A DNA stretch of 36,635 nucleotides, taken from the IMG/VR virus record IMGVR_UViG_2744054854_000005. One strand, given 5' to 3'. The notes beneath the pieces were generated by a model. It was not told where the DNA came from. It worked only from the letters and a program-made list of their open reading frames with translations, and did no database searches. Positions within the stretch are counted from its first letter, which is position 1. Every line of letters starts with the position of its first letter. The position numbers and the translations under genes were made by a program. The DNA is from a virus. Its lineage: Duplodnaviria > Heunggongvirae > Uroviricota > Caudoviricetes. This document shows, piece by piece, positions 1,137-27,659 of the stretch.

Positions 1137-2813
1137 CTAAGCAACATGTAGTTCATCGTTGGCGGAAGTGGCTGCTTTGCGTTCCTGATCAATAGATAGT
1201 GACTCTCTATATTCTTTCGCCTCTGCAAACATTGTCCAGTGGGCATTGATGTTCATATCTTCAATAACCGATTTAATTTCTTTAATATTTACGTTAAAAA
1301 ACTCTTTTCGTGAGTTAATTTTATTGACCTGCTTTTCGTTGAAGACTTTATGCAGATGATTTTCTAATGACGGTGCATCATCACTATAAATCATCGCATG
1401 AACATCGAACGAAAAAGGAACACTAGCATCCCCAAGTTCACGAACACGATCAAGTGGTTCAAGGCGGCGTGTCATTCCAATTTTATATACATCTTCGCCA
1501 AATGAGCCAATATTGCTAATTATATAAACATGGCCTGATCTAGTTTGTTGAGCCATAGAAATAGCTCGTTGGTTTTTAGCTTCAGCTTCTTCATATTTTA
1601 ACTGTAGTTCAGCTATTTTTTGCTCCAAAGCTAAGCGTTGTTCTTCATTTGCAAGCATAAGCTCTTTCGTTGCTTTATTTATAGCTTGCTGAATAGCTTT
1701 CTCTTCTTTTTCGGCTTCTTTTATCGCTTTTTCATACTCTCTACGAGCTCTTTCCTCTTCACGAAGCTGTTCTTTAATCCTTCTTTGCTCCTCTTTTTCT
1801 TCGAGCATAATTTCATTAACTGCAACTCCCCATTTTAGCTCGTTGAGTCGTGCCTGAAGATAGATGTCACTTATTTTTGCGGATCTAAAAGCAGAGCCAT
1901 TATAATTTACAAGTTGAAATGCATCTTTTATTTCTTGGGAAAGTTTTCCAAAATTGTTGTGTTTGACTTTTGATAAAATACTGTCAACTCTTCCATTGAA
2001 GGCATCCAAAACAAAGTTGATAGCAGTATTACGCCTGTTTTGCTCAACATAATCACACGAAGCTGCTTTATTAGTTTTTATTAATGATTTTGTTAACTCC
2101 CTGGCTTTTTGTAATTCCTTGCCTGCATCTGTAAACTCATAATTTTCTGCCAATTCATCAAGTACACTACGGTTAGGGATGATCCATTCATCGCCATAAC
2201 CTTCAATTTTATTTTTCATTGATTTGGCAACTGCTTCATATTTTTCTGCAAACTCTTTAGCTTCATATGCTGAACCAGCAATCTCTTTTGCTCTTTCTTC
2301 TGCATCGGAAATAATTTTTACTGCGTTGTCATTAGCATTTGAGATCAGCTCATTTGCTTTACTGTTGGCATTATCAAGACGTTCTTTGGCTTTCAGGCGT
2401 GCATCGCGAGCGTCTTTGGTGATTGCTATAGCTTCGCTATTAGCGTTGCTTATTGTTATCTGAGCTTGATAACTTGCTTCGTTTACTGTCTTAGCTGCCT
2501 TTATTTGGGCTTCTTCTATTTTTTGCCTAGCTATTGAGTCTGCATTTTTTATCTTATTCTCTGCCTCCATCACTGCGCTGTGCAATTCTTCGTATTGCCA
2601 TAATGGTGCTGCTCGCCCTTCAAGCTCTGATAGATCTCGTGCAGTCTGTGCTAACTTTTCTTGATTTTCACTCAGTTGGCTGGAAAGGGCTATGTTGTTA
2701 GCCGTCAGGTTATCTATGGCGGCTTTGTGTTCTTTACTTTGCTTAAATAATATTATAGCTAGAACAGGGGCGAGAAATGCTAATAAGAATATAACGATGG
2801 AAAATGAATTCAT
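1137..2813 (-). CDS. membrane-anchored coiled-coil protein with C-terminal T5orf172 (GIY-YIG-like) domain; DUF4041-like architecture; candidate defense/abortive-infection cargo
   Basis: 558 aa. N-terminal hydrophobic helix (FSIVIFLLAFLAPVLAIILF), long Ala/Lys/Glu-rich coiled coil, C-terminal motif GHVYIISNIGSFGEDVYKIGMTRRLEPLDRVRELGDASVPFSFDVHAMIYS...LENHLHKVF...RKEFFNV typical of T5orf172. AAGGA ribosome-binding site 8 nt upstream; strongly AT-rich relative to phage core; inserted 20 bp after the cI stop. Confidence 0.8.
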   Translation of the reverse strand: MNSFSIVIFLLAFLAPVLAIILFKQSKEHKAAIDNLTANNIALSSQLSENQEKLAQTARDLSELEGRAAPLWQYEELHSAVMEAENKIKNADSIARQKIEEAQIKAAKTVNEASYQAQITISNANSEAIAITKDARDARLKAKERLDNANSKANELISNANDNAVKIISDAEERAKEIAGSAYEAKEFAEKYEAVAKSMKNKIEGYGDEWIIPNRSVLDELAENYEFTDAGKELQKARELTKSLIKTNKAASCDYVEQNRRNTAINFVLDAFNGRVDSILSKVKHNNFGKLSQEIKDAFQLVNYNGSAFRSAKISDIYLQARLNELKWGVAVNEIMLEEKEEQRRIKEQLREEERARREYEKAIKEAEKEEKAIQQAINKATKELMLANEEQRLALEQKIAELQLKYEEAEAKNQRAISMAQQTRSGHVYIISNIGSFGEDVYKIGMTRRLEPLDRVRELGDASVPFSFDVHAMIYSDDAPSLENHLHKVFNEKQVNKINSRKEFFNVNIKEIKSVIEDMNINAHWTMFAEAKEYRESLSIDQERKAATSANDELHVA

Positions 2814-5564: not shown

Positions 5565-5798
5565 ATGCGTAATATTGAAACTCTCACGACTAAAACCGGA
5601 CCGGATGATGCAGGGCTTAATATTTTACTGACAGAGGCTCGTCTGGAAGAACGCCGGGCAAGGGCTGAAGCAATGGCAGCTCGCCTTGATAGCCTGGCGT
5701 GTCATATCACATCCAGCCAGCTAAACCACGTCGAAGCAGCAGAACTACTGCGTGTAACTGCTGAAGCAATCCAGAACGAAGCGCAGGAGATCCACTAA
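5565..5798 (+). CDS. hypothetical early protein
   Basis: 77 aa, AGGAGA ribosome-binding site 7 nt upstream of the ATG at 5565. Confidence 0.5.
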   Translation: MRNIETLTTKTGPDDAGLNILLTEARLEERRARAEAMAARLDSLACHITSSQLNHVEAAELLRVTAEAIQNEAQEIH

Positions 5799-6025
5799 TG
5801 GCTGATGCAATGGATCTCGTACAGCAGCGCGTTGAAGAAGAACGCCAGCGCCATATCCGTGCTGCCCGTGCCAAAACGCCGGGCGTGTCCCGCGTGCTTT
5901 GCATTGAGTGTGAAGCGCCAATTCCGCCAGCACGCCGCCGTGCCATTCCGGGTGTGCAGCTTTGCATTACCTGTCAGGAAATCGCAGAGCTGAAAGGCAA
6001 ACATTACAACGGAGGTGCTGTATGA
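5798..6025 (+). CDS. DksA/TraR-family C4 zinc-finger protein
   Basis: 75 aa with CIEC...(17 aa)...CITC four-cysteine motif, as in P2-family TraR-like proteins. Start overlaps the previous stop; stop overlaps the dam start. Confidence 0.7.
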   Translation: MADAMDLVQQRVEEERQRHIRAARAKTPGVSRVLCIECEAPIPPARRRAIPGVQLCITCQEIAELKGKHYNGGAV

Positions 6026-6879
6026 GCACCATCCTGAAATGGGCGGGAAATAAAACCGCCGTAATGTCCGAACTGAAAAAACATCTTCCTGCTGGTCCGC
6101 GACTGGTTGAACCTTTCGCTGGTTCCTGTGCTGTGATGATGGAGACGGATTATCCGTGCTATCTGGTTGCGGATATTAATCCTGATTTAATCAACCTCTA
6201 TAAAAAGGTTGCCGCTGATTGTGAATCGTTTATATCTCGCGCCAAAGTTTTATTTGAGATCGCAAACAGGGAGGTGGCTTATTACAACATAAGGCAGGAG
6301 TTTAATTACTCAACTGAAATTACTGATTTCATGAAAGCGGTATATTTACTGTATCTCAATCGTCACGGTTACCGTGGGTTATGTCGCTATAACAAGAGCG
6401 GGCATTTCAACATTCCCTACGGTAATTATAAAAATCCGTATTTCCCTGAAAAAGAAATTCGCGCATTTGCAGAGAAAGCCCCGCGAGCAACGTTTATCTG
6501 CGCCAGCTTTGATGAAACGCTGGCGATGCTGCAGGTGGGGGATGTGGTGTATTGCGATCCGCCGTATGACGGTACGTTTTCCGGCTATCACACTGATGGC
6601 TTCACTGAGGATGACCAGTATCACCTGGCATCCGTTCTTGAACATCGATCATCTGAAGGTCATCCGGTCATTGTTTCTAACAGTGACACATCCCTGATCC
6701 GTTCGCTGTATCGCAATTTCACTCACCACTACATCAAGGCAAAACGCAGCATCGGCGTGTCGGCTGGCGAGAGTAAATCTGCAACAGAAATCATTGCTGT
6801 TTCCGGGCCGCGCTGCTGGATGGGATTTGATCCTTCGCGTGGCGTGGATAGTTCTGCTGTGTACGAGGTGCGTGTATGA
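6022..6879 (+). CDS. dam: DNA adenine methyltransferase (Dam family)
   Basis: N-terminal LKWAGNK motif and catalytic DPPY ([10 protein letters not shown]). GGAGG ribosome-binding site before the ATG at 6022. Confidence 0.85.
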
Positions 6880-9128
6880 GTCATGACGATATGAGCAACT
6901 CTAGCGGCTTTAACGAGGCTGCCGCAGCATTTTCATGGAACGGCCCGAAAAAGGCCATTAACCCTTATCTGGAACCGGCGGAAGTTGCGCCGGAGTCTGC
7001 ACTTTCAAACATGATCACTCTGTACGCTGCCGATAACGAGCAGGAACAGCGCCGCCGCGAGGCACTGAGTGATCAGGTCTGGGAACGTTATTTCTTTAAT
7101 GAATCCCGTGATCCTGTCCAGCGCGAAATGGAGCAGGATAAGCTCATTAGCCGGGCAAAGCTGGCGCATGAACAGCAGCGTTTTAACCCGGACATGGTCA
7201 TTCTGGCAGATGTCAGCGCCCAGCCTTCCCATATCAGCAAGCCGCAGATGCAACGTATTGAATACTTCAGCAGCCTGGGCAGGCCAAAGGCTTATTCCCG
7301 CTATTTGCGTGAGACGATTAAGCCATGTCTGGAACGGCTGGAGCATGTACGCGACAGTCAGCTATCCACTTCTTTTCGCTTTATGGCAAGCCATGAAGGG
7401 CTGGACGGCCTGTTGATTCTGCCTGAAATGAGTCAGGATCAGGTGAAACGCCTGTCCACCCTTGTTGCTGCGCATATGAGCATGTGCCTTGATGCAGCTT
7501 GTGGCGATTTGTATGCCTCCGATGATGTTAAGCCGGAAGAAATCCGCAAGACATGGGAAAAGGTGGCAGCAGAAACCCTGCGACTGGATGTCATACCGCC
7601 TGCGTTTGAGCAACTCCGCCGGAAAAGAAACCGCCGCAAACCTGTGCCCTATGAACTCATTCCGGGTTCGCTGGCGCGTATGCTGTGCGCCGACTGGTGG
7701 TATCGGAAATTATGGAAGATGCGTTGCGAATGGCGGGAAGAGCAGTTGCGTGCTGTTTGTCTGGTCAGCAAAAAAGCATCTCCCTATGTTAGCTATGAAG
7801 CCGTGATGCATAAACGTGAGCAGCGCCGTAAGTCGCTGGAGTTTTTCCGCTCTCATGAACTGGTGAACGAAGACGGCGACACGCTGGACATGGAGGATGT
7901 GGTAAACGCCAGCAGCAGCAACCCGGCGCATCGCCGCAATGAGATGATGGCCTGCGTTAAAGGTCTGGAGCTTATCGCGGAAATGCGTGGTGACTGCGCC
8001 GTTTTCTACACTATCACCTGTCCGTCACGTTTCCATTCCACGCTAAATAACGGCAGGCCAAACCCGACCTGGACCAACGCGACAGTAAGACAAAGCAGCG
8101 ATTATCTGGTCGGCATGTTTGCTGCATTTCGTAAGGCTATGCACAAATCCGGATTGCGCTGGTATGGCGTGCGGGTGGCTGAGCCGCATCATGACGGTAC
8201 AGTTCACTGGCACCTGTTGTGTTTTATGCGCAAAAAAGATCGCCGCGCCATTACTGCTTTGTTGCGTAAGTTTGCCATACGTGAAGACCGCGAGGAGCTG
8301 GGCAATAACACGGGGCCGCGCTTTAAGTCTGAGTTGATTAACCCGCGCAAAGGAACGCCGACAAGCTACATCGCGAAATATATCAGCAAGAACATTGACG
8401 GGCGTGGTCTGGCTGGCGAGATCAGTAAGGAAACGGGTAAATCTCTGCGTGATAACGCTGAATACGTGAATGCCTGGGCGTCTTTGCATCGTGTTCAGCA
8501 ATTCCGCTTCTTTGGCATTCCGGGGCGCCAGGCTTACCGTGAACTGCGATTGCTGGCTGGTCAGGCGGCAAGGCAACAGGGGGACAAAAAAGCAGGTGCG
8601 CCGGTACTGGATAACCCGCGCNNNNNNNNNNNNNNNNNNNNNNNNNNNNNNNNNNNNNNNNNNGTGAAGTGGAAAATGGTTCGTAAAGCCGTTGACGTTC
8701 AGGAGGCGGTAGCCGACCAGGGCGCTTGCGCCCCTTGGACTCGTGGCAATAACTGTCCCCTTGCTGAAAATTTGAACCAACAAGGGAAAGACAAATCAGC
8801 TTATGGGGATACCAGAACGGACATTACCCGCATGGATGACAAGGAGTTGCACGATTACCTGCACAGTATGAGCAAAAAAGAGCGCCGGGAACTGGCTGCA
8901 AGGTTACGCCTGGTGAAACCGAAACGGCGTAAAGACTACAAACAGCGAATTACAGACCATCAGCGACAGCAGCTCGTCTATGAGCTGAAGTCCAGAGGAT
9001 TTGATGGCAGCGAGAAAGAGGTCGGTTTACTCCTTCGCGGCGGCAGTATTCCGTCAGGAGCAGGCCTGCGTATCTTCTATCGGAACCAGCGTTTGCAGGA
9101 AGATGATAAGTGGCGGGATCTGTATTAA
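6876..9128 (+). CDS. A: replication initiation endonuclease A (rolling-circle initiator, P2 gpA family); contains an assembly gap
   Basis: 750 aa with HWHLLCF and YIAKYISK tyrosine motifs typical of gpA. An in-frame 42-N run lies inside the ORF. Confidence 0.85.
8622..8663. other. assembly gap (42 N) inside gene A
   Basis: Run of n characters; true length unknown. Confidence 0.95.
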
Positions 9129-9280: not shown

Positions 9281-9469
9281 ATGCAGGACTATTTTTTGGA
9301 GTCTTTGAAGCTCCAGCGCATTGATTTTTTTCTTAAGCTTGTAGCGGCTAGTGAGTGTAGTGATGAAGAGAAGGGGCTGGCCCTGCAGTGGGTTTCTGAA
9401 CTAACAGATGAACTCATGGCAAAAATCAGAACCCACGAATACAACCGCTCAATGGATGTCATCAGCTGA
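9281..9469 (+). CDS. SOS-regulated small protein (possible Tum-like antirepressor component)
   Basis: 62-aa ORF with GGAGG ribosome-binding site immediately downstream of the LexA box; position matches the 186 SOS (tum) operon. Function inferred from context only. Confidence 0.4.
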   Translation: MQDYFLESLKLQRIDFFLKLVAASECSDEEKGLALQWVSELTDELMAKIRTHEYNRSMDVIS

Positions 9470-9479
9470 GGTGACTTTT

Positions 9480-9713
9480 ATGCGCATTGAAATAATGATC
9501 GATAAAGAGCAGAAGATTAGCCAGTCTACCCTGGACGCTCTGGAGTCCGAGCTTTACCGCAACCTGCGCCCCCTGTATCCCAAAACGGTAATTCGTATCC
9601 GCAAAGGTAGCTCTAACGGTGTGGAACTTACCGGACTGCAACTGGACGAAGAAAGAAAACAAGTGATGAAAATTATGCAGAAAGTGTGGGAAGACGACAG
9701 CTGGCTGCATTAA
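9480..9713 (+). CDS. DinI-family protein
   Basis: 77 aa, MRIEIMIDKEQ...ELTGLQLDEERKQVMKIMQKVWEDDSW resembles the DinI/MsgA family. GAGGTG ribosome-binding site; coupled to the upstream ORF. Confidence 0.7.
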   Translation: MRIEIMIDKEQKISQSTLDALESELYRNLRPLYPKTVIRIRKGSSNGVELTGLQLDEERKQVMKIMQKVWEDDSWLH

Positions 9714-9936: not shown

Positions 9937-10014
9937 CGCGCGCTCATGGTTGTCAGTAAGAATTTATGGTATTTACAATATATAAATAATCACCATTTCA
10001 AGGAGATCTGTTGC

Positions 10015-10719
10015 ATGGCTATGTTAGTGGAAAATTGCCCAAGGTGCGGTGCGCAAAAAATAGCATTTGATGTTCGAGGGGCTAACTGCTGTGGTACGTA
10101 TGAAACATTTTCCGGCGAAAATTTACCCGAATATGAAGTATATTGTGTATGCAGGGAGTGTAAGAAAACCACAATATATATTTGCGATAGTTTAGAACGG
10201 GGGCGTGATCTTAGCAGTATTAACTGGGGCATGGCCTTATTTAAGTTAACTGATATTGCAAAAGTAAAACGTCCAATTAGTCCAGCAGATTTAGATGCAG
10301 GAGAACCACCAGAATTTTTGCCTCAGCATATACATGAAGCTTTTGTAGAAGGTTCTAAGTGTTTAGCTATTGGTTGCTATAACGCAGCAGGAACTATGTT
10401 TAGGTTATGTTTGGATTATGCAACAAAGGACTTATTACCCAAGGAAGATGCTGAACCAAATCAAAAAATACGGCGAAGCTTAGGGTTAAGAATGAATTGG
10501 TTGTTTGATAATCAGCGGTTGCCAGAGACTTTAAGAGACTTGGCTGAATGTGTAAAAGATGATGGCAATGACGGCGCGCATGAAGGAGTTTTAGATTACG
10601 CGGCTGCAGAGGATCTTGAAGAGTTCACTTATATATTGTTGGAACGTTTATATACTGAACCTCAACGCCTTGTTCAGGCAAAAGCAAGACGTGAGGATAG
10701 AAGAAAAAATAGAGGGTAG
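10015..10719 (+). CDS. zinc-ribbon plus DUF4145-like protein; candidate defense/abortive-infection cargo
   Basis: 234 aa from an internal ATG with AGGAG ribosome-binding site and TATAAA -10-like element upstream. N-terminal CPRCG...CVCREC zinc ribbon; C-terminal region with GNDGAHEG, reminiscent of the conserved R..GN..AH motif of DUF4145. AT-rich; convergent with Q, 8 bp between stops. Confidence 0.65.
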   Translation: MAMLVENCPRCGAQKIAFDVRGANCCGTYETFSGENLPEYEVYCVCRECKKTTIYICDSLERGRDLSSINWGMALFKLTDIAKVKRPISPADLDAGEPPEFLPQHIHEAFVEGSKCLAIGCYNAAGTMFRLCLDYATKDLLPKEDAEPNQKIRRSLGLRMNWLFDNQRLPETLRDLAECVKDDGNDGAHEGVLDYAAAEDLEEFTYILLERLYTEPQRLVQAKARREDRRKNRG

Positions 10720-21389: not shown

Positions 21390-21987
21390 CCTGCTGCCGC
21401 CCGGTTCATCGCCGCTTGAGCGCCGACTGGCGCAGACCTGCAGCGGCATTTCCGATCTGCAGGTGCCGCTGCGCGACTTGTGGAACCCGGCAACGTGTCC
21501 GGTCAGCTTTCTGCCGTATCTGGCGTGGGCGTTTTCCGTCGACCGCTGGGACGAAAGCTGGACGGAGAGCGTCAAGCGCCGGATGGTGCAGGACGCTTTC
21601 TATATCCATCAGCACAAGGGGACAACCAGCGCTGTGCGGCGCGTGGTGGAGCCGTTCGGCTTCCTGATCCGCATCATTGAGTGGTGGCAGACCGGCGAAA
21701 CGCCGGGGACGTTTCGCCTTGATATTGGCGTGCAGGAACAAGGCATCACGGAAGAAACCTATCTGGAACTTGAGCGGCTGATCGGTGATGCCAAACCGTG
21801 CAGCCGTCACCTGATCGGCATGTCCATCAACCTGCAGACCAGTGGGCCGTATTTTATGGGGGCTGCCACTTACACCGGCGAAGAAATCACGATCTACCCG
21901 TATATCAACGAAACCATTATTTCCGGCGGCACCGCTTATGAGGGCGGGGCAGTCCATGTTATTGACACAATGAGAGTAAATCCATGA
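21382..21987 (+). CDS. I: baseplate/tail protein I
   Basis: 201 aa, P2 gpI-like. Confidence 0.8.
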   Translation: MNSLLPPGSSPLERRLAQTCSGISDLQVPLRDLWNPATCPVSFLPYLAWAFSVDRWDESWTESVKRRMVQDAFYIHQHKGTTSAVRRVVEPFGFLIRIIEWWQTGETPGTFRLDIGVQEQGITEETYLELERLIGDAKPCSRHLIGMSINLQTSGPYFMGAATYTGEEITIYPYINETIISGGTAYEGGAVHVIDTMRVNP

Positions 21988-22975
21988 GCGCAAAATTTTA
22001 CACCCTGCTGACGGAAATCGGGGCGGCGAAACTGGCAAGCGCCGCCGCGCTCGGCATTCCGTTGAAAATTACCCAGATGGCGGTGGGCGACGGTGGTGGC
22101 GTATTACCAACGCCAAGCGCGCAACAGACCGCGTTAGTTGCTGAAAAACACCGCGCCGCGCTGAATATGCTGTATATCGATCCGCAGAACAGCAGCCAGA
22201 TTATTGCTGAGCAGGTGATCCCCGAAACGGAGGGAGGTTGGTGGATTCGTGAGGTAGGTCTGTTTGATGAGACTGGAGCACTGATTGCTGTGGGCAACTG
22301 CCCGGAGAGCTACAAACCGCAGCTGGCGGAGGGGAGCGGGCGCACGCAGACCGTGCGCATGGTGTTGATTACCAGCAGCACAGATAACATCACCCTGAAA
22401 ATTGATCCGGCAGTGGTGCTGGCGACCCGTAAATATGTTGATGACAAGGTGCTGGAACTAAAGGTGTATGTGGATGACCTGATGGCTAGACACCTTGCAG
22501 CTGCAGATCCTCATACGCAGTATGCACCAAAAGCCAGTCCGACATTCACTGGTACGCCAAAAGCACCAACGGCAGCGGCAGGCAATAATTCCACGCAACT
22601 TGCTAATACGGCTTTTGTGCAGGCGGCAATTGCTGCACTGGTGGCATCTTCCCCTGCAGCTCTGGATACACTGAATGAGCTGGCAGCAGCGCTGGGGAAC
22701 GATCCAAATTTTGCCGCCACCATGACAAATGCGCTTGCCGGAAAGATGGATAAGGCAGCCAATGGGACGGACATTGCCGACGTATCAGAATTTCTCAAAA
22801 ACCTTGGAATTAAATCGGCAGCACTGTGTGATGTGGGTGCGGGTACAAACCAAATCCCCGACATGGGTTCGTTTGGAATATTGAAAAACGCGATCGGATA
22901 TCAGTATCTACCAGGTGGACTGATTTTGCAGTGGGGTAAAGTTGGCCCAACCAACGCAGGGCAAACTACAAACGT
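21984..22975 (+). CDS. H: tail fiber protein H, N-terminal conserved part; 3' end lost in assembly gap
   Basis: N-terminus MSAKFYTLLTEIGAAKLA... typical of P2-family tail fibers; ORF runs into the N run. Confidence 0.8.
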
Positions 22976-23075
22976 NNNNNNNNNNNNNNNNNNNNNNNNN
23001 NNNNNNNNNNNNNNNNNNNNNNNNNNNNNNNNNNNNNNNNNNNNNNNNNNNNNNNNNNNNNNNNNNNNNNNNNNN
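22976..23075. other. assembly gap (100 N) in the variable tail-fiber region
   Basis: Run of n characters; 100 is a conventional placeholder length, so the missing sequence may be much longer. Confidence 0.95.
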
Positions 23076-23399
23076 TTGATTGAAATTACCCATGTGCTTC
23101 ACCTCCAATTTTGTGGTGCAGCTCCCTCCGGTAAAAAGCTGGGGTCAGTGAATGGGATGCCTGGTTGGGTTGATGTGCCGCCACTGACTGCAGTTGAGTT
23201 GCTGGCAGCGGTAGTAATTAAAAAACAATCGCTCATCAGTGAGGCGAACGTGGTAATCGCACCGCTAAAAGATGCGTCAGATGGTGGATATATCGATGCT
23301 GCAGACGCACCACGACTTGATGCATGGCAGCGATACCGTTATGCGTTAACGAAGGTGGACGCTGCTAACCCGGTGTGGCCGGATAAGCCAGCACAATAA
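23076..23399 (+). CDS. G: tail fiber assembly protein, C-terminal part; 5' end in gap
   Basis: C-terminus ...PRLDAWQRYRYALTKVDAANPVWPDKPAQ is the hallmark ending of Tfa/gpG-type chaperones; the ORF track fuses it to H only because the Ns are read as codons. Confidence 0.6.
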   Translation: MIEITHVLHLQFCGAAPSGKKLGSVNGMPGWVDVPPLTAVELLAAVVIKKQSLISEANVVIAPLKDASDGGYIDAADAPRLDAWQRYRYALTKVDAANPVWPDKPAQ

Positions 23400-23726
23400 T
23401 AACTATTTATATTTTATGGAAAATGGCAGGCTATCTTGGATACCCTGAAATATGAATCATAAATACTGACAAAATATGTTTATATGTTACCTGAAAAGTC
23501 GTTGCAATGCTCCACACAGCCAGTCGCGCAAGGAAGTGGCTGGATATAGCGGGTCAAGATCAGAGTTTGAATCGAGTCGTGATGGGGGGCGAGGTACACT
23601 AATGGCTTAGGGAAAGGGTAGCATTGACTTGGTTTTCATGTCAATGCTAAAATTATACTTTATTATTTATGAATGCTCTTGGTGTAATTATTAAGAGCAA
23701 ATCTAATGGCGGCAAGGATTTATTTG

Positions 23727-24833
23727 ATGAGTTTGCTAAGTAGGTTTTGGGGGGAATGGTTTAAAAGTTATGGTGATACTGATTTTATAACGGGCATTCG
23801 TGCTTTTGCTATTCTTTCAGTTATTCTTATTCATTCCGGTGGCGCTGGTCTTCGTTATTTTGGATGGTATGGTAATAATTTAGCAAACTTGGGTGCAATG
23901 GGGCCGTGTATTTTTTTTGTTATATCCGGTTATAGTGTTTCTGTGTCATATGAGAAATCATCTTGTTATTTGTCCTTTCTAAAAAATAGAATATTAAGAA
24001 TTGCCCCATTATATTATTTTTGGATTGTTGTCTTCATTTTGTTATTTCAGGGGGTTGGGTATTGGGGGGAGAGATATGGCGCATCCTTAAATTTTTATAA
24101 TTTATTAATGCACATCTCATTCTTAAGTTTTGCTGATTATAGAGTGGCGAATTCAATATTAGGCGTTGAATGGTCTTTATCCATTGAAGTTTTCTGGTAT
24201 ATTTTTTTACCGGCAATCATTCTCGTAATGAGAAGTAAAACGTCAGTATGCATAATGTTAATTACGTCCTGGTTATTATTTACGATATCCTTGATTATAT
24301 TGAAGTCTTACTCCTCCCCTAACAACGGTGATGTAATGATCGCATATTATTGGACTCCATTTCCGTATTTTTTCTCGTTTTGTGCTGGTGTGGCAGCATA
24401 TAGGGTGCGGTCTTGGTGGAGATTTTCAGGGTTAAGTGCAGATATTGCATTGTTATTGTCTATAACACTCATTCTTTTATATCCCATTATGGAAAGATAT
24501 AGTGTTAACAAAATAATCGATAAGCCCGTTCTATTCTCCATGCTCACTATGGTGAACATTTCCGTTGGGAATAAAGATGGTCATATATTACGATCTTTAT
24601 TATGTAATAAAGTATCTATATTTATTGGTTCGATAAGTTATAGTCTGTATTTATCTCATTATGTAGTTATTTTTTTGGTTGGGCCGTACCTAACTGAATT
24701 TAAAGAAAACTCTATATGGCATTTTATAATATTCCTACTAATATCTATAATTGGAAGTGTTTTTACTTATATCTTAATAGAAAGGGTGTTAACTGATAAA
24801 ATAAAGCATTTTATTGACTCGAGAATGAAATAG
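23727..24833 (+). CDS. acyltransferase family 3 integral membrane protein (OafA/Oac-like, possible O-antigen acetylase)
   Basis: Motif ITGIRAFAILSVILIHSGG near the N-terminus and about 10 hydrophobic helices; very AT-rich. ATG at 23727 has an AAGGA ribosome-binding site; the ORF-track ATG at 23706 does not. Confidence 0.75.
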   Translation: MSLLSRFWGEWFKSYGDTDFITGIRAFAILSVILIHSGGAGLRYFGWYGNNLANLGAMGPCIFFVISGYSVSVSYEKSSCYLSFLKNRILRIAPLYYFWIVVFILLFQGVGYWGERYGASLNFYNLLMHISFLSFADYRVANSILGVEWSLSIEVFWYIFLPAIILVMRSKTSVCIMLITSWLLFTISLIILKSYSSPNNGDVMIAYYWTPFPYFFSFCAGVAAYRVRSWWRFSGLSADIALLLSITLILLYPIMERYSVNKIIDKPVLFSMLTMVNISVGNKDGHILRSLLCNKVSIFIGSISYSLYLSHYVVIFLVGPYLTEFKENSIWHFIIFLLISIIGSVFTYILIERVLTDKIKHFIDSRMK

Positions 24834-24915
24834 GCAGCATTAATTAAATCACAATAATTGATCTGGAAGCTCTATAGTGCCGGGTGCAACATAATGCACT
24901 TTGTTGCTGCAAACA

Positions 24916-24950
24916 ATTAGCGCAAGATGACGATGTTGCCTTGCGCTAAT
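24916..24950 (+). terminator. hairpin with 11-bp perfect arms (ATTAGCGCAAG / CTTGCGCTAAT) and 13-nt loop downstream of the acyltransferase
   Basis: Seen in sequence; followed by AT-rich sequence rather than a clean T-run, so terminator function is uncertain. Confidence 0.35.
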
Positions 24951-25039
24951 ATATTAAATTCACACCAGCGTCAAACTTGCGCCCCTTCATCACCGCCTCA
25001 TCAGTGATTATCATCCTCGCTTCAAAATCAACCTTTGAA

Positions 25040-25065
25040 AATGGTCACCTATATAGGTGACCATT
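25040..25065 (-). terminator. 26-bp perfect palindrome AATGGTCACCTATATAGGTGACCATT, 5 bp after the stop of the minus-strand 140-aa gene, followed on that strand by TTTT
   Basis: Seen in sequence. Position and U-run fit an intrinsic terminator; perfect symmetry would also fit a dimeric protein-binding site. Confidence 0.45.
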
Positions 25066-25069
25066 CGGG

Positions 25070-25492
25070 TTAATGCAGCGTTGTAGTTGAGCTGGACTCT
25101 GCCATTGCCACTGTCAATTCATCGCCTTCGGCTGAGATCTTAATGGTATTACTTCCTTCTGATTTAGCGCCTTTTGGTAGACCTAGCTGATCATAGATAC
25201 ACAAGAATCTTGAATCATTTATAAAGGTGATTTCTGTTACAGTCCCACCTTCAACGACCTTAGAGTCTATTGATTTTATCAAATTGATATCCTGAACATT
25301 AATGTGCTTTATCGCATCCCAGTTAAGGCTGATGTCCACGTTATCCTTTTGCATCGTTATCACATGACCGGCCTTATGCTGGGTTGTGACTTTTCCATCA
25401 GGGCTCATCGTAATCTTTTGCCCCATGTGATAAATAATTTGAGTTCCGTCTTCGAGACACTCGATTTTTGGCTCTTTAGTAAAGTCGTTCAT
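25070..25492 (-). CDS. hypothetical protein, no recognisable domain
   Basis: 140 aa, AAGGA ribosome-binding site, AT-rich, divergent from the invertase gene. Confidence 0.55.
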   Translation of the reverse strand: MNDFTKEPKIECLEDGTQIIYHMGQKITMSPDGKVTTQHKAGHVITMQKDNVDISLNWDAIKHINVQDINLIKSIDSKVVEGGTVTEITFINDSRFLCIYDQLGLPKGAKSEGSNTIKISAEGDELTVAMAESSSTTTLH

Positions 25493-25697
25493 GAAAATCC
25501 TTCAATTATCTGTTGCTGGAAGGTGCTAATCTACACGAATCCTTGGTTATGTATGTAATGAGGCTCTAGAAATCCACTTGAATATAAATAAATTTTTATG
25601 GTGTTGGCTTGTAATGCTCGCGTAGCTCTTTGTCAAAAGTGAAACTCTGATAACCTGGTTCTACTGACGAACAGAAGGATGAGCAGGAGATCGCTTT

Positions 25698-26258
25698 ATG
25701 ATTATTGGGTATGCACGAGTATCAAGTAATCATCAGGACACCGAGCTTCAGATGCAGGCGCTCAGAGCTGCTGGCTGTAAGTTAATTTTTGAGGAAAAGG
25801 CTTCTGGCCGTAAGACGAATCGACCAATCTTGAAGAAAGTGGTTGAGATGCTTGAACCCGGTGACGAACTGGTCATCTGGAAGTTAGATCGTATCGGTCG
25901 CAATGTACTGCACGCATTATTGACCTTTCAGAGCCTCGCAGAACGCAATGTTAATATTCGTTCTATTACAGATGGCGTTGACCTGAGCACTGCCAGTGGG
26001 CGCTATAACTTCCGTAATATTCTCTCTGCGGCACAATATGAGTCTGATCTGAATAGTGAACGCACTCTGGCAGGGTTAGCGGTTGCCCGCGCTAAGGGGA
26101 GGATTGGCGGACGTAAGCCTAAGTATACTGATGAGCACTGGGATGCGTTTGAACGGGAAATTAAGTCCGGCTGCTCACATCGTGATATAGCTCTCAAATA
26201 TGGGGTCGGCCTGTCGACTCTCTACAAACGTTATCCGGCTCAGCAAGAGCATCACTAA
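25698..26258 (+). CDS. serine recombinase, DNA invertase (Hin/Gin/Cin/Pin family)
   Basis: 186 aa; N-terminal catalytic region MIIGYARVSSNHQ with the catalytic serine, and C-terminal HTH (GCSHRDIALKYGVGLSTLYKRY). AGGAGA ribosome-binding site. Confidence 0.85.
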   Translation: MIIGYARVSSNHQDTELQMQALRAAGCKLIFEEKASGRKTNRPILKKVVEMLEPGDELVIWKLDRIGRNVLHALLTFQSLAERNVNIRSITDGVDLSTASGRYNFRNILSAAQYESDLNSERTLAGLAVARAKGRIGGRKPKYTDEHWDAFEREIKSGCSHRDIALKYGVGLSTLYKRYPAQQEHH

Positions 26259-26343
26259 ACACTCTTTGCGTTCATTTTTGCACTGTGCAGAATGTGTCTT
26301 TTTGGCACCTTCTGGCAGTGCAAAATTTATCGCGTTTTGGTGC

Positions 26344-26383
26344 AAAAAAAATCGCCGCGCTACAATCTGCGGGGATTTTTTTT
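26344..26383. terminator. bidirectional intrinsic terminator (A8-TCGCCGC-loop-GCGGGGA-T8)
   Basis: GC stem flanked by an A-tract and a T-tract, between the invertase and the FI late promoter. Confidence 0.55.
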
Positions 26384-26394
26384 GCCCCTTCCAT

Positions 26395-26412
26395 TGTGCC
26401 ATTCTCCACACA
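26395..26412 (+). promoter_or_regulatory. late-promoter activator site TGT-N12-ACA upstream of FI
   Basis: TGTGCCATTCTCCACACA, about 84 bp upstream of the FI start. Confidence 0.5.
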
Positions 26413-26486
26413 TAGCCCGGTGCGTGCGCAGTGCGCATATCAACCAGAACATAGGCAGACACCCTGTAAACCGGAGAGACTGCCTT

Positions 26487-27659
26487 ATGGCTCAGGACTA
26501 CCACCACGGCGTGCGCGTTGTTGAAATCAACGAGGGCACCCGATCCATTACCACGGTGAGCACCGCCATTGTGGGCATGGTATGCACCGGCGATGATGCT
26601 GATGCGTCCATGTTTCCACTCAATAAGCCGGTTCTGCTGACCGATGTGTTGACCGCCAGCGGTAAAGCGGGCGAGTCCGGCACGCTGGCCCGTTCGCTGG
26701 ATGCGATTGCAGACCAGGCTAAACCCGTGACCGTCGTTGTACGTGTGGCGCAGGGCGAAACCGAAGCGGAAACCACCTCCAACATTATCGGCGGCGTGAC
26801 CGCTGACGGTAAAAAGACGGGCATGAAAGCGCTGCTTTCGGCGCAGTCGCAGCTCGGCGTCAAGCCGCGCATTCTCGGCGTGCCGGGACACGACACGCAG
26901 GCGGTTGCCACTGAGCTGCTGAGCGTGGCGCAGAGCCTGCGCGGGTTTGCTTATCTGTCCGCCTATGGCTGCAAAACGGTGGAAGAAGCGATTGCCTACC
27001 GTGACAATTTCAGCCAGCGCGAGGGGATGCTGATCTGGCCTGACTTCATCAACTTTGACACCGTGCTGAATGCAGATGCGACGGCTTACGCCTCCGCTCG
27101 TGCGCTCGGCCTGCGTGCCAAAATTGACGAGCAGACCGGCTGGCACAAAACCCTGTCCAACGTGGGCGTGAATGGTGTCACCGGCATTTCCGCTGATGTG
27201 TTCTGGGATCTGCAGGACCCGGCAACCGATGCGGGACTGTTGAACCAGAACGACGTCACCACGCTTATCCGCAAAGACGGCTTCCGCTTCTGGGGTTCCC
27301 GCTGCCTCAGTGACGATCCGCTGTTTGCCTTTGAGAACTACACCCGCACGGCGCAGGTGCTGGCTGACACCATCGCAGAAGCGCACATGTGGGCGGTGGA
27401 TGGCGTGCTTAACCCATCGCTGGCCCGTGACATTATCGAAGGTATCCGCGCCAAGCTGCGCAGCCTGAAAGCGCAGGGTTACATCATCGGCGCAGACTGC
27501 TGGCTGGATGAGTCGGTGAACGATAAAGACTCCCTGAAAGCCGGGAAGCTCACTATCGACTACGACTACACGCCGGTGCCGCCGCTTGAAAACCTGATGC
27601 TGCGCCAGCGCATCACCGATCAGTACCTGCTGGATTTCTCCAGCCAGGTCAGCGCGTAA
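26487..27659 (+). CDS. FI: tail sheath protein
   Basis: 390 aa from an internal ATG ([17 protein letters not shown]...), P2 gpFI-like. Confidence 0.9.

Follow-up and report, generated by a model that had tools for sequence, protein, structure and literature searches.

The tail-fibre inversion systems of Mu (G/Gin), P1 and P7 (C/Cin) and e14 (P/Pin) pair a serine invertase of ~186 aa with 26-bp crossover sites of 12-2-12 layout, which carry inverted central dinucleotides and lie at the junction of the constant and variable parts of the fibre gene and beside the invertase module. P2-like prophages of E. coli hold invertible segments too (EC958 Phi1, Phi2 and Phi4; E41; ET734), with mirror-image fibre sets and near-perfect inner repeats (GGTTTGGGAGAA), and in EC958 about 50% of the reads fall in each orientation (PMC4134206). 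The Z/fun hotspot of P2, between G and FI, takes up swapped fibre and tfa genes as well as other cargo, and a DNA invertase with inverted neighbouring genes is frequent there (10.1101/2024.10.15.618418). Temperate phages also carry O-antigen acetyltransferases of the Acyl_transf_3 family, which serve lysogenic conversion, as morons of foreign GC; examples are the genes annotated as Oac or O-antigen acetylase in the Salmonella phages SPN1S and SPC32H.

We analysed a viral DNA of 36,635 nucleotides (IMG/VR record IMGVR_UViG_2744054854_000005; hereafter the window), in which an initial annotation had seen an orphan invertase with no visible invertible segment. This window proves to be a P2-like prophage of E. 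coli whose G–FI hotspot contains a tail-fibre inversion module of the Gin/Cin/Pin type, a variant of the known systems: it shares with Mu, P1, P7 and e14 the invertase, alignable with Gin over its full length, and the type and placement of the sites, and with the EC958, E41 and ET734 segments the phage type and locus. Unlike the former, it has an acyltransferase in place of the second fibre-tip/chaperone set, degenerate inner half-sites and a 140-aa gene between site and invertase, and the inverted state was not observed for its module (about 38 contigs, ~4 with an intact invertase); the mirror-image fibre sets and near-perfect inner repeats set the latter apart from it. Its locus is of mixed use, like Z/fun, but its cargo lies inside the site-bounded segment and moves with the fibre tip across phage types; cargo and fibre tip as one site-bounded module were not found stated in the text of 10.1101/2024.10.15.618418.

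The constant part of the tail-fibre gene H (21984..22805, + strand; codons 1-274, ending ...EFLKNL) holds the Phage_tail_fib N-terminal domain, and the same 274 aa (100% identity) recur in other E. coli, Citrobacter and Salmonella prophages with various C-terminal parts, most starting GLGE. The variable part (Hc; 22806..22975, +), with a weak Gp53-like_C match, runs into a gap of 100 N, which, as the initial annotation noted, removes the C-terminus of H; the cut falls after codon 331. Across the 281 bp that fill this gap in near-identical contigs, H continues in frame to 393 aa, and this exact protein is on record as P0375. Directly 3' of the gap lies the 3' part of the tail-fibre assembly gene (tfa/G; 23076..23399, +; Caudo_TAP over 23079-23399, E 1.4e-14), which is indeed the sole tfa sequence and is in forward orientation; the full protein has 137/148 aa in L003, L020 and L029. 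The statement that a second, inverted fibre/tfa set is absent also held: the ORF list and domain search give no reverse-oriented fibre or tfa gene in the window, there is no such ORF in 22806-25029, where the acyltransferase fills that half, and the closed gap adds none.

The invertase (25698..26258, +; 186 aa) is intact and of the Hin/Gin/Cin family, as first annotated. It comprises Resolvase (PF00239, E 3e-37) and HTH_7 (PF02796, E 4e-6) domains, in keeping with the family plan of about 180-195 aa with a catalytic N-terminus, its nucleophilic Ser near residue 9-10, and a C-terminal HTH. It matches PHROG 125 ('DNA invertase', E 1e-69) and can be aligned with Gin (3UJ3, E 5e-55) over the full length, gap-free over residues 1-185, its MIIGYARVSS and KLDRIGR opposite MLIGYVRVST and KLDRLGR; matches to the gamma-delta and Tn3 resolvases are weaker (E 4e-21 to 5e-18). 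Identity is 72% to phi80 PinL and 52% to Cin. Such enzymes do normally adjoin an invertible fibre segment, as first stated. The gene is 99.9% identical in DNA to copies beside such segments in E. coli E41 and MB51, and in E41 and ET734 the 140-aa gene, the invertase and the outer half-site are together 99.9% identical to the window. A motif search for a Fis enhancer in the 5' part of the gene (G-N13-C, spaced 48 bp) misses the annotated enhancer of P7 cin itself. The 140-aa gene (25070..25492, − strand) travels with the invertase; E. coli relatives have an identical copy (WP_003030314.1), and 1750 blocks of the collection list it. Its product has no Pfam, PHROG or PADLOC match, a sub-threshold NCBIfam match, only 5 matching clusters among 1.8 billion representatives and an AF2 model of low confidence. 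From 25030 onward the window is 99.9% identical to other E. coli prophages across 8.4 kb, and this block is therefore a recent acquisition; by the annotation of these 99.9% identical relatives, the tail sheath gene FI (26487..27659, +) ends the G-to-FI cargo hotspot.

The claim that no invertible segment is visible did not stand, as two site-like 26-mers (12-2-12) with inverted TT/AA centres lie outside the gap, in register with the sites of relatives. The left site (22792..22817, +; outer half, centre and inner half TTCTCAAAAACC-TT-GGAATTAAATCG) is inside H, and the right site (25018..25043, +; inner half, centre and outer half CGCTTCAAAATC-AA-CCTTTGAAAATG) is left of the pair formed by the 140-aa gene and the invertase. 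With a position weight matrix (PWM) trained solely on half-sites of relatives (n=11), the full sites rank 2nd (left) and 3rd (right) among 36,723 positions, the latter rank being partly circular, as one training half-site, CATTTTCAAAGG, is the right site's own outer half; independent support for this site is thus the homology boundary with relatives. Homology to every relative begins at 25021-25030, the right outer half is identical in 11 relatives with classical H-tfa/tfa'-Hc' invertible segments, and two other invertase modules are found attached to the right inner half at the AA centre. On the left, the outer half scores highest of all half-sites in the window (14.5 bits), and at 22792-22803 it gives the window's one exact match to the half-site pattern of the initial annotation, TTMTCNNAAACC; this site aligns with the proven left sites of relatives, and it is here that the identity of the acyltransferase-bearing module to the L020 type begins. 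Between the sites, a segment of ~2.4 kb encloses the fibre tip, tfa and the Acyl_transf_3 cargo. The inner halves are less regular: on the Hc side, GGAATTAAATCG scores −1.7 bits, versus 7-14 for working half-sites, and is without the conserved GGTTT core, and on the cargo side the half-site scores 5.1 bits. The former shares 7/12 bases with GATTTTGAAGCG, the reverse complement of the latter, and they match the canonical GGTTTGGGAGAA at 4/12 and 7/12 bases, respectively; a working sister module has a half-site of 2.8 bits. A perfect palindrome, GGTCACCTATATAGGTGACC (25043..25062), conserved with the module in all relatives, adjoins the right site directly after the stop codon of the 140-aa gene; it may be a terminator or a binding site.

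The cargo (23706..24833, +) is a membrane acyltransferase of 375 aa, or 368 aa if counted from the ATG at 23727, with PF01757 covering residues 27-355 (E 5.8e-31). It matches PHROG 3333 ('O-acetyltransferase', E 2e-49) and 6705 ('O-antigen acetylase'), the sources of its homologues call them 'peptidoglycan/LPS O-acetylase OafA/YrhL', and no NCBIfam equivalog matches it. Judged by its family, it probably serves lysogenic conversion by O-acetylating LPS or a different surface glycan. Like the Oac of SPN1S and SPC32H it is an Acyl_transf_3 protein of foreign GC in a temperate phage, but it is just 26-28% identical to these phage Oac genes; its nearest other relatives are from Yersinia (63-64% identity), and the cargo was absent from the complete E. 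coli genomes and phage records searched. Its GC content is 28-38%, versus 50-64% in phage genes. Upstream lies a promoter-like site (TTGACT-18-TAAAAT, TG-extended; 23624..23653, +), the best sigma-70-type match in 22700-26500 (10/12, a match to consensus only), and downstream a hairpin, TTAGCGCAAG-13 nt-CTTGCGCTAA (24917..24949, +), which from its sequence appears terminator-like. In position, own signals and atypical composition the cargo is thus a moron of the P2-like G–FI kind, and it occupies the place of the relatives' second, inverted fibre set. O-antigen acetyltransferase genes of other phages are not known to lie inside a fibre-inversion segment.

The segment is not confined to this phage type. 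Window positions 22792-25043 are 99.6% identical across 2437 bp to 186-like prophages of the L020 type, where the constant part of H is just 71% identical and the invertase is different and truncated, and elsewhere this cargo end continues, from the AA centre on, into a third invertase module (182 aa). In all, the segment, 99.6-99.9% identical, is joined at the crossover sites to at least three unrelated phage backgrounds, and the whole of it is therefore a mobile module, swapped at these sites. A sister module, Hc-tfa-GT9, in E. coli P2-like and Mu-like prophages (L019, L030-L039), has the same plan, with a single fibre set and LPS-enzyme-like cargo between crossover sites and junctions at site centres to several backgrounds. 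It differs in its cargo, a family-9 glycosyltransferase that converges on tfa, in the GGTTT core retained by the Hc-side half-site and in that both orientations are common: 80 contigs are in the fibre-ON and 56 in the fibre-OFF state, and L030 and L031 are 99.97% identical except for a clean 2.2-kb inversion. This module is joined to the window's own H constant part in L018 and L019, and in L035, where no invertase gene was called, to its right-hand outer half-site and 140-aa gene.

The initial annotation had proposed that the gap hides an invertible segment, with sites and alternative fibre/tfa genes, present in both orientations in the sequenced population. Such segments do break assemblies, and reads can divide about equally between orientations, as in EC958 (PMC4134206). 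Yet three contigs with 99.9-100% identity to both flanks of the gap (22976..23075, exactly 100 N) give a plain H/tfa junction of 281 bp (L003 625-905, equal to L029 6993-7273; L004 with one SNP), a closure by proxy from near-identical contigs of sister strains rather than reads of the window's own; the L029 match spans 12.9 kb, and the same fill is found in L020-type prophages. It comprises the final 62 codons of H together with the beginning of tfa, without an extra gene, and the PWM scan detected no crossover-site-like sequence in it. Moreover, both sites are visible elsewhere. An assembly break due to inversion would sit at a crossover site, and hundreds of 'partial' H proteins in public assemblies (345-354 aa) do stop there, whereas the gap starts 171 nt inside the segment, at neither site, which argues against an inversion-caused gap. 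A second run, of 42 N, lies 14 kb away (8622-8663), so gaps are frequent in this draft assembly. Most likely, then, draft assembly simply left 281 bp open here and inversion played no part; that the genome of this strain has an IS element or another insert at this place is possible, but a hidden invertible segment is highly improbable. That annotation had named a simple H–G junction with no sites nearby as what would speak against it; what we find is the simple junction, closed by proxy, but with sites present outside the gap. Its other suggestion, of a different switch in the cargo island under the control of the invertase, holds only loosely, in that the cargo is inside the segment. A hin-like flip of a small promoter element, switching the acyltransferase or the 140-aa gene, might be imagined, as the cargo adjoins the invertase and the intergenic DNA is AT-rich; however, no inverted repeat above chance surrounds any intergenic region in 21900-26600 and none brackets a promoter, the PWM scan gave no further site-like 26-mer in the island, and the only sites enclose the whole 2.4-kb segment with the cargo's own promoter-like site and hairpin. 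We regard this as the least probable of the explanations weighed here.

Direct observation of the gap content (by proxy), site positions, module boundaries and orientation counts leads us to what we consider the probable reading: the sites lie outside the gap, the ~2.4-kb segment is a mobile module that appears locked or rarely flipping in this prophage, and the gap is independent of inversion. We infer the locked or rarely flipping state because both inner half-sites have drifted from the canonical sequence and only the fibre-ON orientation was seen. Fibre-ON H proteins occur on 1 + 30 + 5 + 2 contigs (about 38 assemblies, all ON), fusions simulated for the OFF state (301 aa and 230 aa) have no counterpart among about 15 billion proteins, and none was present among the homologues. 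Compared with 80 ON to 56 OFF in the sister, the difference is marked (Fisher p = 6e-8), but the 38:0 count is dominated by a lineage with a truncated invertase, the commonest carrier of the module, in which the enzyme has decayed to 91 aa; beside an intact invertase the module is known from only about 4 assemblies (4/4 ON versus 59% ON, p = 0.15), and assembled consensus contigs can miss minority orientations. Inversion would fuse H to a 27-codon tail, giving a fibre without its receptor-binding tip. If the segment is locked, the intact invertase would be a recently co-inherited passenger, possibly active in trans on other prophages. Several points tell against locking: the intact invertase has 99.9% identity to copies beside classical segments, the TT/AA centres are compatible and the outer half-sites canonical, and the single-fibre-set sister clearly inverts with a poorer cargo-side half-site (2.8 versus 5.1 bits in the window). 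Furthermore, the module was exchanged exactly at both sites, which therefore seem to have served as recombination substrates; how the exchange took place we infer. It is accordingly possible, if doubtful, that the segment is an active switch, alternating at a useful rate between a fibre-ON state with the 393-aa H and a fibre-OFF state in which H is truncated to 301 aa, with the promoter of the 140-aa gene in the OFF state reading sense into tfa and the acyltransferase. The same single-fibre layout in both orientations in the sister, joined also to the window's H constant part, outer half-site and 140-aa gene, favours such a switch, but no OFF-state protein or contig of the module was found, the L003 and L029 contigs continue unbroken and unbranched through both sites, the Hc-side inner half is without the GGTTT core, and, with the acyltransferase promoter inside the segment, flipping would have no obvious regulatory payoff. 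An unlikely alternative, which overlaps with the locked segment and does not exclude it, is an invertase without a target in cis, kept for action on the segments of other prophages or an undecayed relic. EC958 Phi4 inverts despite a truncated invertase (PMC4134206), PinQ of prophage Qin is described as inverting the e14 P segment (PMC12529663), the block from 25030 is recent, as its 8.4 kb of near-identity attests, and invertase modules are joined at the site centre to non-site DNA in L012, L015 and L016; the evidence here is, however, that of one window, the other prophages of the host genome being outside its scope.

The gap is thus trivial and the sites of the invertase are in plain view, which removes a false lead. 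Tail-fibre inversion segments appear to hold more than pairs of host-range alleles: surface-glycan enzymes are among their cargo, an acyltransferase here and a family-9 glycosyltransferase in the common sister module, and different phage families trade whole segments precisely at the crossover sites. We would tentatively hypothesize that tip, chaperone and LPS enzyme make up a class of site-bounded module, moved by invertases or site recombination among P2-, 186-, Mu-like and other myoviruses, in which an active invertase yields a fibre ON/OFF rather than a host-range switch, the window's own being still switchable. If so, a receptor-binding tip would be accompanied by an enzyme that might change the corresponding receptor, and fibre tips would be lacking in the OFF state, in which read-through from the 140-aa gene would raise expression of the acyltransferase. 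The ~60:40 split of the sister in E. coli assemblies implies that many such prophages are fibre-less at any time, which bears on predicting prophage inducibility or infectivity from genome sequence, and in annotation truncated 'phage tail protein' genes may represent switch states, not decay. Should the enzyme modify the receptor of the linked tip, the module would tie superinfection exclusion to host range.

The serine recombinase encoded at 25698-26258 (186 aa) can be aligned over its full length with Gin and is closer to it (E 5e-55) than to gamma-delta resolvase (E 4e-21); it matches the PHROG 'DNA invertase' and shares 72% identity with phi80 PinL and 52% with Cin. The facts recorded in the initial annotation, among them an intact Hin/Gin/Cin-family invertase and an assembly gap of 100 N, hold; its statement that no invertible segment is visible does not, since two inverted sites can be seen outside the gap. 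The window is a P2-like prophage, running from integrase, CI repressor and replication genes to portal and terminase genes, then through capsid, lysis and baseplate genes V, W, J and I to the tail-fiber gene H (from 21984), and ending with sheath (FI), tube, tape-measure, D and ogr. The interval from H to FI contains the gap of exactly 100 N (22976-23075), the 3' part of the fiber assembly gene tfa (ending at 23399), an AT-rich Acyl_transf_3 gene (23706-24833), a gene for 140 aa on the minus strand (25070-25492), and the recombinase. Other accessory genes occur elsewhere: a 558-aa protein with DUF4041 and T5orf172/MUG113 domains (1137-2813, minus strand), between integrase and CI repressor, looks like accessory cargo of another prophage hotspot, and a D12-class adenine methyltransferase, a DinI-like protein and a DUF4145 protein are encoded at 5962-6879, 9408-9713 and 9946-10719, the latter two between replication and portal genes, the position of the P2 old/tin hotspot. 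A second run of 42 N (8622-8663) falls within a 750-aa ORF (6876-9128), taken by position as a replication gene.

The block rightward from 25025 is 99.9% identical to prophages of E. coli E41, MB51, and ET734, where a classical invertible region, in which H and tfa are followed by tfa' and a fiber C-terminus on the opposite strand, lies left of the 140-aa gene and the invertase. The sites of these relatives are obvious inverted repeats, for example TTCTCGCATACC-TT-GGTTTGGGAGAA within H and, beside the 140-aa gene, TTCTCCCAAACC-AA-CCTTTGAAAATG. Aligned on them, the window has a left site at 22792-22817, TTCTCAAAAACC-TT-GGAATTAAATCG, in H at codon 274 (...FLKNL/G), and a right site at 25018-25043, CGCTTCAAAATC-AA-CCTTTGAAAATG. 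With a matrix built from the relatives' half-sites only, they rank second and third among 36,723 positions, the rank of the right site being partly circular, as one training half-site is identical to its outer half. One 26-mer, at 5626, scores higher, but with a CT centre, no partner and a position in the early region it was not accepted as a site. The left outer half is the best half-site of the window and its sole exact match to TTMTCNNAAACC; homology to every relative starts at 25021-25030, the AA centre of the right site; and other prophages carry the 274-aa constant part of H, at 100% identity, in front of many different tips, of which nearly all begin GLGE. Therefore, these two sites are the real boundaries of a segment; they are inverted relative to each other, and neither falls in the gap. 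The inner halves have degenerated, matching the canonical GGTTTGGGAGAA at 4/12 and 7/12 positions (-1.7 and 5.1 bits). Because of this divergence a generic inverted-repeat search of 21900-26600 returned chance-level pairs only and missed the real sites, which had to be located from the relatives. Neither an H-constant/site nor a cargo/site junction turned up when viral and metagenome collections were scanned for exact patterns; in the genome collection, the scan gave a single locus, in Citrobacter murliniae, whose inner half is non-canonical. A Fis-enhancer motif test was abandoned because it misses even the annotated P7 enhancer.

The 140-aa gene always accompanies this invertase and is read towards the segment. 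In the public collection 1750 blocks list it, with only five relative clusters in 1.8 billion representatives; family searches gave no hit, and its AF2 model is all-beta, at low confidence (pLDDT 61, pTM 0.39). A perfect 20-bp palindrome, GGTCACCTATATAGGTGACC (25043-25062), abuts the outer half of the right site and is kept in all relatives; it may be the terminator of the 140-aa gene or a protein-binding site.

The gap had been proposed as a possible hiding place of crossover sites or alternative fiber genes, an idea contradicted by three near-identical contigs (L003, L004, and L029). Retrieved from public assemblies with the acyltransferase and the reconstructed H protein as queries, these contigs provide a plain H/tfa fill. 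Both gap flanks are 99.9-100% identical in these contigs, the L029 match spanning 12.9 kb, and the gap is closed by the same 281 bp in L003 and L029, with one SNP in L004. The fill contributes the final 62 codons of H, which thereby reaches 393 aa and ends in a Gp53-like_C tip, together with the opening codons of a tfa of 137/148 aa, and contains no site-like sequence. The gap starts 171 nt within the segment; breaks that result from inversion are located at the crossover site itself, as in many 'partial' H proteins of 345-354 aa. Judged from sister strains and not from its own reads, the gap thus appears to be an ordinary draft-assembly hole. Public H proteins indicate that draft assemblies commonly break exactly at the crossover site, where hundreds of E. 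coli and Klebsiella 'phage tail protein, partial' records end (P0425-P0438, 345-354 aa). In the related prophage of E. coli E41 an IS1 lies between H and tfa (L002 5101-5798); IS insertion at this junction does happen and could in principle underlie a gap like that of the window. The end of L004 at 25058 was considered as a sign of inversion heterogeneity and set aside: branching of the k=31 graph at the right site would account for it, but the contig is unbroken through the left site, and a second prophage with the same right flank would be the simpler reading.

Does the segment invert? A promoter-flip switch was rejected as a reading of the invertase's role, the only sites found being those that enclose the entire 2.4-kb segment. 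Simulated inversion turns the H C-terminal part, tfa and acyltransferase around and leaves H with 27 extra codons (301 aa), a truncated OFF form without the tip; the OFF-junction 31-mers contain ...TTCTCAAAAACCTTGATTTTGAAGCG... and ...CGATTTAATTCCAACCTTTGAAAATGG.... That the segment is an active ON/OFF switch finds support in a sister module with the same single-fiber layout, in which a family-9 glycosyltransferase replaces the acyltransferase. Complete E. coli genomes contain this module in either orientation (L030, L031; also L019, L032-L039), even though its cargo-side half-site scores lower than that of the window; in direct three-piece BLAST, L030 and L031 are 99.97% identical except for a clean 2.2-kb inversion. 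Its H is ON on 80 contigs and OFF on 56, the OFF state being a truncated 353-aa protein ending ...LALR. The sister module is also present in Mu-like prophages.

Against an active switch, about 15 billion proteins include no OFF protein of the window's module (301 aa; 230 aa for the equivalent in the L020 background), homologues retrieved with the OFF fusion contained no OFF form either, and the ON forms are present on 1, 30, 5 and 2 contigs; L003 and L029 span both sites unbroken. The contrast with the sister module (38:0 vs 80:56) is significant (p = 6e-8), but most of the 38 ON assemblies carry a truncated invertase; for the approximately four with an intact enzyme the test is without power (p = 0.15). 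In the functional system of EC958, by contrast, about half of the reads support each orientation (PMC4134206). We therefore lean towards a segment that is locked or rarely flips, and keep the active switch as the distinctly less probable reading.

The segment is also found elsewhere. With the fill, 22792-25043 is 99.6% identical over 2437 bp to 186-like E. coli prophages (L020-L028), the commonest lineage with the acyltransferase module, in which the constant part of H is only 71% identical to that of the window, the outer half-sites differ (left TTCTTAAAAACC, right CCTTTTAGAAAA), and the invertase is a different, Pin-like gene shortened by internal deletion or frameshift to 91 aa (e.g. L020 9372-9647). 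In L024 most late genes are also lost. In two further contigs (L005 and L006), what follows the same tfa-acyltransferase end from the AA centre onward is a third module, with outer half CCTTTTTTATAA and a 182-aa invertase of only 68% DNA identity, at a prophage end beside yciI. Nearly the same segment thus stands between neighbours that are unrelated, and the breakpoints coincide with the crossover centres. Exchange of the segment at these sites would be expected to leave this pattern, and may have been either invertase-catalysed or due to short-homology recombination at the conserved cores. In L012 (a Mu-like prophage), L015 and L016, the DNA that meets the invertase module precisely at the AA centre contains no recognisable half-site, L016 having no partner site in its S74-type fiber gene; these junctions look like products of recombination with secondary sites.

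Invertase-driven fiber switching is classical in Mu, P1, and e14, and the annotation of the P7 record describes a further case. The window differs in that a putative glycan-modifying gene replaces the second fiber set within a site-bounded segment. In the literature searched we found no description of such a segment whose replacing gene travels with the fiber tip between phage families. The Z/fun hotspot of P2 mixes fiber genes, other cargo and frequent invertases (preprint 10.1101/2024.10.15.618418), and invertases acting in trans on other prophages are documented (PMC4134206; PMC12529663). No promoter-like site of the region scores better than that of the acyltransferase gene, which also has a hairpin downstream and a GC content of 28-38% vs 50-64% in phage genes. 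Megablast and blastn gave no match to it in the 5,426 complete E. coli genomes or phage records searched; its nearest relatives beyond this E. coli cluster are from Yersinia (63-64% identity), and phage O-antigen acetylases are 26-28% identical. From its family membership, the enzyme would modify LPS or another surface glycan, and its target may possibly be the receptor of the linked fiber tip.
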